In this document: positions 12,001 to 15,000 of the stretch, piece by piece | How the letters are laid out: each line of letters begins with the position of its first letter | How positions within the stretch are numbered: the stretch's first letter is position 1 | Position numbers: made by a program | NCBI RefSeq assembly: GCF_054482595.1 | Contig: NZ_JBTHVH010000004.1 | Strand: one strand, 5' to 3' | DNA from: a plasmid | DNA length: 64,000 nt

Positions 12001-15000
12001 AACCAATGTGCTTACTAAACGATATAGCTCTTTGCCTTTTCAGGTCATTGAGAAGTTCGTAAGAGTAGCGATTGCAGTAAATGACTCTGGTACAGAAGAC
12101 AGTGTGATGGATATTCGTCAATTAGTAGCTTGGGTTGGCACGTCGATGACGTTAAAAACCTTTAGTCTTCTTGACACTTTCAAAATAGCTTTTGCTTCTG
12201 CTTTACCTTTACATGTGGTCGATCTTGTTCTTCAAGCTATAGATCTTTCTCTTGGCGAAGACAAGGATAAATCGCTGGAGTATTTCACAGCAAAAAAGTC
12301 GAGTTAGATGGGATTTGTTATGAAACCTCTGATATTTGTATCTCAGAGTTATCCCATCTTGAATTTAGTGCGTTTTTAAGTACGGATGGTGCTGCTACCA
12401 TTGCTATAGCAAAAAACGGAACTAATTTTACTGGACTTATGCAACTGAATAACGACTATTCTTTATTGTTTTATCATGATGGTAAAATAAATATGGAAGG
12501 TCTGATTAAACAAATGGAATTAAAAGGTTATATGTATCAGGGAGCAATGGGCAATGATGATGTTGTTGCTGAGTTTCTCGGTATTCTTTTAATTTCACCA
12601 GAGAAGCTTTAATATCAACCCTATCGGGAAATCTTTCCCGTTGGGGAGGGTTTCCCCTTTTTTTTGGAGAAACCCATGACTTTAAATACTTCAATGCTTA
12701 ACAAAGTATCTGCAAAACAAATCTCTGAGAATTTTGCAAAATCATATCCAGATTTACTGGAAGGTGCAGTTATAACAAAAATTGAAATAAGTGGCTGTCA
12801 AGGATCGCGTCGAACCGATAAAATCGATTTGTCTTATGATGGAGATGATATTACGGATCAAAAAAGCGTATCTAAAAGCGAAGTACGCTGGATTGACATA
12901 AAAGCCCTTAGCTTCAAAAGTACGATTACCAGCAGAATATCAACTCTTTGCTCACGCTTGTGCATCCGCTATAGCAATATGTGGATTTTACCAGTATCCA
13001 GTATGGAAGAGTTTCTGGAAGGGGCCCAAGAGATTGAACGAGAGTTTCAGGCAGGTATTCAAAACGTTGTAGACAATTATGAGATGCATATTGAGGCTGA
13101 AAAAAATAGAAGCCCAAGAATGTCTTCTTTGATTGATCAGTTGAAATTAACTAAAGATGATTTCATAAAATCCTTTAGATTTAATATTGCTCACTTTATT
13201 CCTTTTACGCCTATTAGCGTTGAAGGTGATGAAACCCAGGACTACTATCAGGAACAATTGATAACAGATCTGGCAGAAGAAGCAATGAAGGTTTATGAAA
13301 AAATTAGCAAAAATAACAATTTGCGCTCAAGTACTATTGACCGACTGAAGCAAATGCAAAATAAGATCATTAGCTTCATGTTTATACATAAAGAGGCGGC
13401 AGTACTTGCAGAAGCTATAAAACACATAATGAATAATTTACCTAAAGGTGCCATTTCTGAACCTCGCGACGTTGCGGTGTTACAGCAGTGGTTTTATTTC
13501 ATGAGTGATGCTTCAATGTTAAAGCGTATTATTTCAGGAGAGCAAAAGGTTACTGACTGGTTGGAATCTATTACCAGATCATTTAATCAAAGCTCACAAA
13601 CAGAACCGAACGCGCTACAGAACACAGGTATTGAAGCTATTTTAGATTCAACAAATGTGTTCCAGGTTGAACCTGTCGTAGAGAACGATATAAATAACAG
13701 CACGTTTTCAAACACTGATCCTGTAGCTGAACCTGAGAAATCAGTTTCGCAACAGGAAGACAATGTTGAAAATGGTTTTGATATCGAGCTCAAAGGCTGG
13801 TAACTGTTTGCTTTATTAAAAACCCCAGATGGGTACTTCACCATCTGGGTGAGTACCCCTTTTTTATAAAGAGGTATTCTATGAAATTAGATCTTAAATC
13901 ATCACCGCGCCATATTAAGCGTTTACAGAATATAGCAAAAGTCATTAGCGGCTTAGGCGATGTAAGAGTTGTAATAGACGACAATACCAAAGGACCGTAT
14001 TTTGATCCTGTAAATAAAGTTTGTGTTTTACCAAACGGCGATTATAGCGATGATGACTTTGTCAGTCTGATTGAAGGTTTTACCTGTCATGAAGCTGGTC
14101 ATGGTCGCTATACCGACAGCGAGGTTTACAGTGACGCCTTTAATAGTGTTCTCAAGTCATCTGAAGGGTTTACACGCTTCGATGACGGAATGAATGCAGA
14201 GTTTGAGAGCCTCGCTGAGAAACGTAAAGCTTATAGCAGGGCAAAACGTCTTACCGGGCTTATAAATCTGTTCGATGATGTACAGATGGAAGAGAAGGTT
14301 GGTAACGATTATCCGGATGCAAAGCGGCGGCTTGCAGCCACTTACGCACTGATGGTTAAAGCCGGAAGGATGACTCCTGATATATCTTCTCGTCCGGAAA
14401 ATCCTGTCCTATTTATTGAGTGGTATCTGCTTAACTCATTGCGAGTAAAAGTCCTTCAGCAGGCAGGTCACAAAGAAACACTCGATCCGTTTTTTGACTA
14501 TGCCCAAAAGATACTTTCTCCAGTAATTTCTGATGTTGAGGAAATTTTTCATGATGCTCTTGGTTGTGAAAATACTCAGGGCTGTGAATCCCTTGCTCGT
14601 AAGACCCTGGCTCTTTTAGAGAGACTGCGGGATGAGGCAAGGGAACAACAGCAGCAGACAGAGCAGGAGGAGCAGGAGGCATATGATGAATCCGAGACCG
14701 ATACCGATACCGATACCGAATCAGAAGATAAATCGCTTGAGTCGACTGATAGTCGTGAGGATGATTCTGAGGACGATAGTGAAGGTCAGGCAGATACTTC
14801 CGATAACTCTGATCTTGCTCAAGAGGGATGTTCTGAGCCTTCAGAACTTGCTGAAGATAACGAGGGAAATAATGAACCCACCGGTGGCAATCCCACAGGT
14901 GATAACATTATTGAAGACGATACTGATGCGATTAACCCTTCCGAGAGTGAATCAGATGAAGCCAGTTCGACTAACGTTGAAGATGAAAGTAACTTTTCAT

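Follow-up and report, generated by a model that had tools for sequence, protein, structure and literature searches.

Does a short repeat inside the coding sequence of a plasmid gene differ in copy number among related plasmids, and do such differences matter to the protein? The question is raised by a (GATACC)3 array in a 64,000-nucleotide stretch of plasmid DNA (contig NZ_JBTHVH010000004.1), which was analysed as a whole and is referred to here as the window. The initial annotation had described the array as an in-frame repeat at 14690-14725, in the acidic linker of a vWA protein. It proposed that the number of units may change by slippage without a break of the frame, set a comparison of copy number across homologous plasmids as the test, and rated the matter as minor.

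The array and its host gene

The window consists of backbone from a large resistance plasmid of the IncHI2 group. The gene that carries the array belongs to a trio on the + strand:

11249-12307, + strand: upstream partner gene, encoding an AAA_5 (CobS/MoxR-like) ATPase (Pfam AAA_5, E 5e-28; phrog_249)
12664-13803, + strand: middle gene of the trio, encoding a DUF3150 protein (Pfam PF11348, E 2e-23)
13881-15893, + strand: host gene of the array, an ORF of the IncHI2 backbone for a CobT-like VWA protein of 670 aa (Pfam VWA)

The host gene is 100% identical to that of a "VWA domain-containing protein" of the E. coli plasmid pTB-nb4. There it lies downstream of trhU, trhN, and trhI, as the third member of a conserved run that consists of genes for an AAA ATPase, the DUF3150 protein, the VWA protein, a 73-aa ORF, and a Toprim protein. 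The DUF3150 gene also adjoins the VWA gene in IncHI1 and Klebsiella plasmid homologues. PLSDB records with the gene were, among those inspected, of the IncHI2A / MOBH / MPF_F type and came from Escherichia, Salmonella, Enterobacter, Klebsiella, and Citrobacter. Searches with the PADLOC defence models returned no match for the VWA or DUF3150 protein and, for the AAA_5 ATPase, weak generic AAA matches alone (E 2e-4 or worse). The match of this ATPase to the CobS model TIGR01650 was likewise weak, at 34 bits against a cutoff of 558.

The array lies inside the CDS, 813 nt from the start codon, and is made up of two kinds of unit:

14694-14699, + strand: one GAGACC unit, with one mismatch to GATACC and part of the same array, encoding E-T; 1-3 copies in other IncHI2 plasmids
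14700-14717, + strand: (GATACC)3, encoding D-T-D-T-D-T; 1-4 copies in other IncHI2 plasmids
14697-14719, + strand: perfect period-6 run in the ACCGAT register, 23 nt, 3.8 copies

On the + strand, the context reads GAATCC, GAGACC, three times GATACC, and GAATCA. Tandem Repeats Finder (TRF) called the array at 14692-14719 with period 6, 4.7 copies, 95% matches, and a score of 49. The distance from the start of ORF 13881-15893 to the first GATACC unit (14700-13881 = 819 = 273 x 3) places the units in frame, with GAT read as Asp and ACC as Thr, and the resulting peptide is E272-T-D-T-D-T-D-T279-E280 within ...AYDESETDTDTDTESEDKS... The first description of the locus is thus borne out by the sequence: the repeat is in frame, the interval given for it encloses the array, the host protein matches the vWA family (Pfam PF00092, E 2e-7), and the surroundings are acidic, with 69 Asp and Glu against 8 Lys and Arg in residues 241-450.

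Such a repeat is rarely expected by chance. The GATACC array is the sole perfect repeat of at least three copies with a period of 4-12 in the 64 kb, and only one of 300 simulated windows (Markov-1) held any period-6 run of at least three copies. All four Thr codons of the array are ACC, while outside the array the VWA gene uses this codon for 27% of its Thr residues, so a recent duplication of the DNA unit fits better than independent codon choice. Three other features of the region were set aside. A 9-bp repeat, GAGCAGGAG x2.1 (14661-14679), has no part in the polymorphism described below, being invariant in 14 of the 14 loci read. An alternative-frame ORF that overlaps the array (14632-15129, + strand) is a compositional artefact, a low-complexity read-through (…PRPIPIPIPNQ…) without supporting evidence. 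A minus-strand ORF (14431-14682) is also a compositional artefact and stops short of the array.

Copy number and tempo of change among IncHI2 plasmids

Depending on the IncHI2 plasmid, the host gene is 2001, 2007, 2013, 2019, 2025, or 2031 nt long, and all annotated CDSs in this range are intact. Full-gene matches in 1,121 PLSDB plasmids were of 2007, 2013, 2019, and 2025 nt. The array, which is bracketed by CATATGATGAATCC ... GAATCAGAAGATAAATCGCTT, was read in 15 fetched loci, and alleles are written as the number of GAGACC units followed by the number of GATACC units. In every sequence read, the whole of the length difference falls inside the GAKACC array. Nine alleles were found:

(1,1): L012
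(1,2): L002, L004, L009, L011, L014
(1,3): window, L007
(2,2): L013
(2,3): L001, L008
(3,1): L006 (pAPEC-O1-R)
(3,2): L010
(3,3): L003
(3,4): L005

The alleles have 2-7 units, all keep the frame, and the nine are connected by single-unit steps. The GAGACC block precedes the GATACC block in every allele, and interleaving was never seen. The proposal that the array may vary in copy number without a frame break therefore holds, and the comparison that had been set beforehand as its test came out in its favour, as the numbers differ among homologous plasmids. Two refinements are required: the array is compound, with GAGACC (1-3 copies) varying as well as GATACC (1-4 copies), and its change is slow and follows lineage, as shown below. 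As for slippage, the whole-unit, in-frame variation that it was invoked to explain is there, and we infer slippage itself as the mutational process from this pattern. The rating of the locus as minor seems fair to us.

Allele-specific queries of 195-213 nt were used to estimate how common the alleles are in 1,118 PLSDB records. The counts below come from BLAST identity bands rather than from reading sequence by sequence, and those of minor alleles are bounds only:

3 units, R478-type flanks: 432 PLSDB records
4 units, window-type flanks: 585 PLSDB records
5 units: 74 PLSDB records
6 units: 4 PLSDB records
other unit combinations: 23 PLSDB records, by subtraction

From evenly spaced sampling, the 585 four-unit records are estimated to comprise ~470 exact (1,3) matches, ~19 that differ by one mismatch, and ~93 of the (3,1) type, which differ by two. 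The 275 replicons of complete E. coli RefSeq genomes fell into identity bands of 233, 40, and 2, and the 7-unit allele is present in an E. coli RefSeq plasmid.

The numbers also speak to the reliability of the alleles. Draft assemblies and those built from long reads alone can get short repeats wrong, and an assembly or sequencing artefact would be a trivial source of polymorphism. However, the arrays (12-42 bp) are shorter than any read, the changes are always whole 6-bp units, and complete assemblies made independently, by different laboratories and with different technologies, show the same alleles tens to hundreds of times (n=74 for 5 units and n=432 for 3 units). They also agree with pDLST lineages that were defined independently. 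We consider an artefact very improbable.

Comparison of the flanks indicates the tempo of the change. Ten sequences with identical flanks (180 nt on each side) carry eight different alleles, and in three fetched genes (L001, L002, and L003) the indel is the sole difference from the window over the whole 2-kb gene (identities 99.7, 99.7, and 99.4%). The array thus changes at a higher rate than its surroundings do by point substitution. Two flank haplotypes are found with allele (1,2) and likewise with (1,3), which reflects either recurrence or recombination.

The array is nevertheless slow-changing, not hypermutable, and tracks lineage. Plasmid R478, the prototype of ST1 (PMC4855149), matches the (1,2) query at 100%, and the ST2 prototype pAPEC-O1-R carries (3,1). 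Of the ST4 plasmids listed in PMC7355605 (Table S1), all nine match the 207-nt (2,3) query at 100%. Since one of them, pSSE-ATCC-43845, was isolated in 1941 (PMC7355605), the (2,3) allele is the same from that isolate to 2016. The Australian ST4 plasmid pTZ41_1P (MT604108), which belongs to a distinct and divergent ST4 lineage (PMC7355605), matches the (3,3) query at 100%.

The predicted protein and its relation to CobT

An AF2 model built on a 78-sequence alignment (mean pLDDT 85) has two confident regions, the N-terminal domain (residues 8-270) and the C-terminal region that ends in the VWA fold. Together with conservation in the 78 relatives, it suggests the following layout:

13881-14690, + strand: N-terminal domain, residues 1-270, predicted as a helix, a three-stranded sheet, and then helices; pLDDT mostly >90
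14088-14102, + strand: HExxH motif, residues 70-74, invariant in the 78 relatives
14691-14996, + strand: acidic linker, residues 271-372, low AF2 confidence and no predicted secondary structure
15372-15890, + strand: C-terminal VWA/MIDAS domain, with DxSxS at residues 507-511; T578 and D606 are also invariant

The array forms the first 8-9 residues of the linker, straight after the predicted helix 232-270. Over residues 271-372, pLDDT by block is 41-55 and there are no DSSP elements in the model, so the linker is predicted to be disordered, with low pLDDT taken as a proxy for disorder and not as a measurement of it. In the 78 relatives, linker length ranges from 41 to 187 aa, the median fractions are 0.30 for D+E and 0.03 for K+R, and several of the linkers have tandem peptide repeats of their own. 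The linker is thus under weak constraint in length and sequence but keeps its acidity.

Single-sequence methods recover little beyond the C-terminal domain. Pfam matches VWA alone in the whole protein and returned nothing for the isolated N-terminal domain or the linker, even at E=10; in the PDB, the sequence on its own matched just two VWA entries, both weakly. The family is large, with 1,176 clusters at 50% identity and E <=1e-3. Foldseek, in a search dominated by the VWA domain of the model, found its best PDB matches for the VWA fold in the NorD VWA domain bound to NorQ and in the MIDAS domain of Rea1/MDN1. By contrast with the single sequence, the family alignment profile reached the solved cobaltochelatase CobT (9uka_G) at E 6e-37, and the Pfam families CobT and CobT_C were found in 50 and 60, respectively, of the 78 full-length relatives.

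The plasmid protein is, by predicted architecture and profile homology, CobT-like, and it is not filed as a cobaltochelatase, because it falls short of the curated cobaltochelatase thresholds (33.5 bits against a cutoff of 779 for TIGR02442) and the 64-kb window has no CobN-sized ORF, TrhN being the sole ORF of >1000 aa. CobT consists of an M48C-like N-terminal domain, a linker of ~90 residues that is unseen in cryo-EM, and a VWA C-terminal domain (bioRxiv 10.64898/2026.07.21.739949). CobT, as solved in CobST/CobSTN (PDB 9uka series), and the plasmid protein share a helical N-terminal domain with a three-stranded sheet and, after it, an acidic linker of ~90-100 residues that leads to the C-terminal VWA/MIDAS domain. 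In both systems, the gene is paired with one for a CobS-like AAA_5 ATPase, and the cryo-EM invisibility of the CobT linker has its counterpart in the low pLDDT of the plasmid linker. The two differ in that the plasmid protein lies far below the NCBIfam cobaltochelatase cutoffs and that a DUF3150 gene stands between the plasmid ATPase and VWA genes. A further difference is the HExxH metallopeptidase motif, which is intact in the plasmid protein but which solved CobT lacks at the corresponding position of the alignment. By analogy with CobST, where the linker is not visible, the plasmid linker would act as a flexible tether between the N-terminal and VWA/MIDAS domains.

Origin and meaning of the variation

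The variation is most probably explained by replication slippage in a length-tolerant, disordered tether, with alleles that are probably near-neutral and mark lineages. A compound in-frame microsatellite, (GAGACC)n(GATACC)m, would sit at the start of the predicted disordered linker, where occasional replication slippage, or other unequal pairing of the 6-bp units, may gain or lose whole units. Because a unit spans two codons, for E-T or D-T, both the frame and the acidity of the linker would be kept. If the linker is a flexible tether, a change of 2-10 in about 100 residues would be tolerated, and alleles tolerated in this way would persist as near-neutral length polymorphisms and mark plasmid lineages. 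Point mutation between G and T in the boundary unit is another way in which certain alleles, such as (1,3) and (2,2), could be converted into each other. Neutrality of the alleles is assumed here; as they follow lineages, selection and hitch-hiking are indistinguishable.

Selection might instead tune the length or charge of the tether to different hosts or partner proteins. Three units of the R478 type occur mainly in Enterobacter, Citrobacter, and Klebsiella, and four to five units mainly in E. coli and Salmonella, as such tuning would predict, and the acidic composition is kept across the family although the sequence is not. This host association is, however, fully confounded with plasmid lineage, and flank SNPs co-vary with it. 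The alleles change 2-10 residues in a linker of ~100 residues whose length among relatives spans 41-187 aa, and some otherwise complete conjugative plasmids have the gene interrupted by IS elements, which argues against strong constraint. We regard adaptive copy number as unlikely. It is also distinctly doubtful that the array is non-neutral in the sense that a tether altered step by step in length and charge tunes the reach of the MIDAS domain to the CobS-like AAA+ partner or to a substrate, with lineages that carry host-adapted alleles; if this were true, a 9-bp VNTR in Klebsiella plasmids, described below, would represent the same phenomenon on a larger scale. Finally, a simple-sequence repeat in a coding region with an overlapping ORF (14632-15129) might suggest phase variation, in which the array would act as a contingency locus and turn the VWA gene, or a gene that overlaps it, on or off. 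This has a negligible probability, because a 6-bp unit with nine alleles all in frame gives no on/off switch, the copies are few (2-7) and their number has stayed stable over decades within lineages, and the ORF is the read-through rejected above.

The biological significance of the array is small, as harmless length variation from a microsatellite that keeps the frame within a disordered linker is a textbook case. The array accounts for several RefSeq WP_ entries that differ by ET/DT indels alone, and these should not be taken as functionally distinct variants. Its practical value is that of a single marker, by short amplicon or in silico, that separates the IncHI2 backbone lineages tested: (1,2) for ST1/R478, (3,1) for ST2/pAPEC-O1-R, (2,3) for ST4, (3,3) for the Australian ST4 branch, and (1,3) for the abundant window type. 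Such a marker could complement pDLST in tracking plasmids with mcr-1, mcr-9, or blaCTX-M. A search of the literature on DUF3150 and on IncHI2 repeats or von Willebrand proteins found no description of the locus and no typing scheme for it. The locus appears to be undescribed, although the array is in kind an ordinary in-frame coding VNTR.

Acidic tethers ahead of a MIDAS domain are found in other AAA_5 systems. In Rea1, a D/E-rich region separates the tail from the MIDAS domain, and in BchD/ChlD of Mg-chelatase an acidic linker stands ahead of the integrin-I domain. The likeness of Rea1/Midasin, NorQ-NorD, and BchD/ChlD to the plasmid protein, an acidic tether before MIDAS, is one of architecture only.

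At the level of DNA, the locus shows the repeat excess, the whole-unit variation, and the unit length divisible by three of a coding VNTR. As in the coding microsatellites and VNTRs used for MLVA typing, identical short units stand head to tail in a length that is a multiple of 3, whole units distinguish otherwise identical sequences, the site is a low-complexity linker, and the alleles follow lineages. Unlike MLVA-type VNTRs, the plasmid array is low in copy number (2-7), slow, compound with two unit types, and plasmid-borne rather than chromosomal. The closest parallel is the orthologue on Klebsiella IncHI1B/IncFIB and IncHI3-type plasmids, which has a 9-bp VNTR (GAYGRCTCT, encoding D-G/D-S) at the same position in the linker. 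It has 7 to ~42 copies, all in frame; the three loci read have 7, 18, and 40 strict units, and the orthologue spans in eleven sampled records (1698-1995 nt) all differ by multiples of 9. Like the IncHI2 array, this VNTR is in frame, acidic, and variable in whole units, but its unit is different and it is far more polymorphic, so the repeat of the IncHI1B/IncFIB plasmids may be the better typing target.

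Gene neighbourhood and interrupted copies

The VWA gene lies within a run of genes that sits 3' of trhU, trhN, and trhI:

11249-17532, AAA_5 (CobS-like), DUF3150, CobT-like VWA, a 73-aa ORF, and a Toprim/DUF7146 protein

The synteny of DUF3150, VWA, and the small ORF is also found in IncHI1 and Klebsiella plasmid homologues. PADLOC returned no match for the run, and a literature search found no work on what the run does. In some IncHI2 plasmids, namely AP022520.1, NZ_MK461930.1 (search match H354), and NZ_CP034832.1 (H373), the VWA gene is broken or truncated. An IS1203-family element lies within the gene in NZ_MK461930.1, and in AP022520.1 (L011:433-733) the sequence departs from the flank approximately 25 nt 3' of the hexanucleotide array, and beyond that point comes a transposase gene. 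The latter plasmid is nonetheless typed as conjugative, so the gene looks dispensable for plasmid maintenance.

Tandem repeats in the linker

A second short in-frame repeat lies 15 nt 5' of the hexanucleotide array, and showed no variation across the 14 IncHI2 loci that were read (14/14):

14661-14679, GAGCAGGAG x2.1, encoding EQEEQE

Two Spanish Enterobacter cloacae plasmids, OW968343.1 (locus L007) and OW849078.1 (H184), carry a hexanucleotide array of four-unit length, where the usual allele, written as the numbers of GAGACC and GATACC units, is (1,2). The array of OW968343.1 was read directly as (1,3) with R478-type flanks, and the length in OW849078.1 was inferred from a match span of 201 nt. 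The longer array reflects one of two events, recombination with plasmids of the window-type lineage or the independent addition of a single GATACC unit.

In Klebsiella IncHI1B/IncFIB/HI3-type plasmids, the VWA orthologue (35% identity) has a 9-bp in-frame array at the equivalent linker site, and its unit, GAYGRCTCT, encodes D-G/D-S dipeptides. It was read in three loci, all with an intact VWA ORF (3/3):

L015:1075-1453, 9-bp array
L016:1075-1156, 9-bp array
L017:1075-1255, 9-bp array

Strict 9-bp units numbered 7, 18, and 40 across these loci, and TRF gave 9-42 copies. Among 11 sampled records the orthologous gene spans 1698-1995 nt, and every difference is a multiple of 9. The Klebsiella array is in-frame throughout and much more polymorphic than the 6-bp array of IncHI2, and it could be used as a typing marker.

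Distant family members (P0002, P0018, and P0020) have unrelated tandem peptide repeats of their own in the corresponding linker, namely (DGQQQ/DSQQQ)n, (SSEDKSESGE)n, and an approximately 16-aa unit, GDSDDDADADSEGDQA. From these sequences, repeat expansion of the tether looks like a trait that recurs within the CobT-like VWA family.

HExxH motif of the N-terminal domain

The N-terminal domain of the VWA protein contains the following motif:

14088-14102, HExxH, residues H70-E71-A-G-H74

The motif is conserved in all 78 aligned family members; D133 is likewise invariant, and E137 nearly so. The N-terminal domain of CobT has been described as peptidase-M48C-like (bioRxiv 10.64898/2026.07.21.739949). 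Taken with the invariant HExxH, this description suggests that the plasmid protein may have retained metal binding or peptidase action. The solved cobaltochelatase CobT differs at this site, as it lacks HExxH and has GDSMAL at the aligned position.
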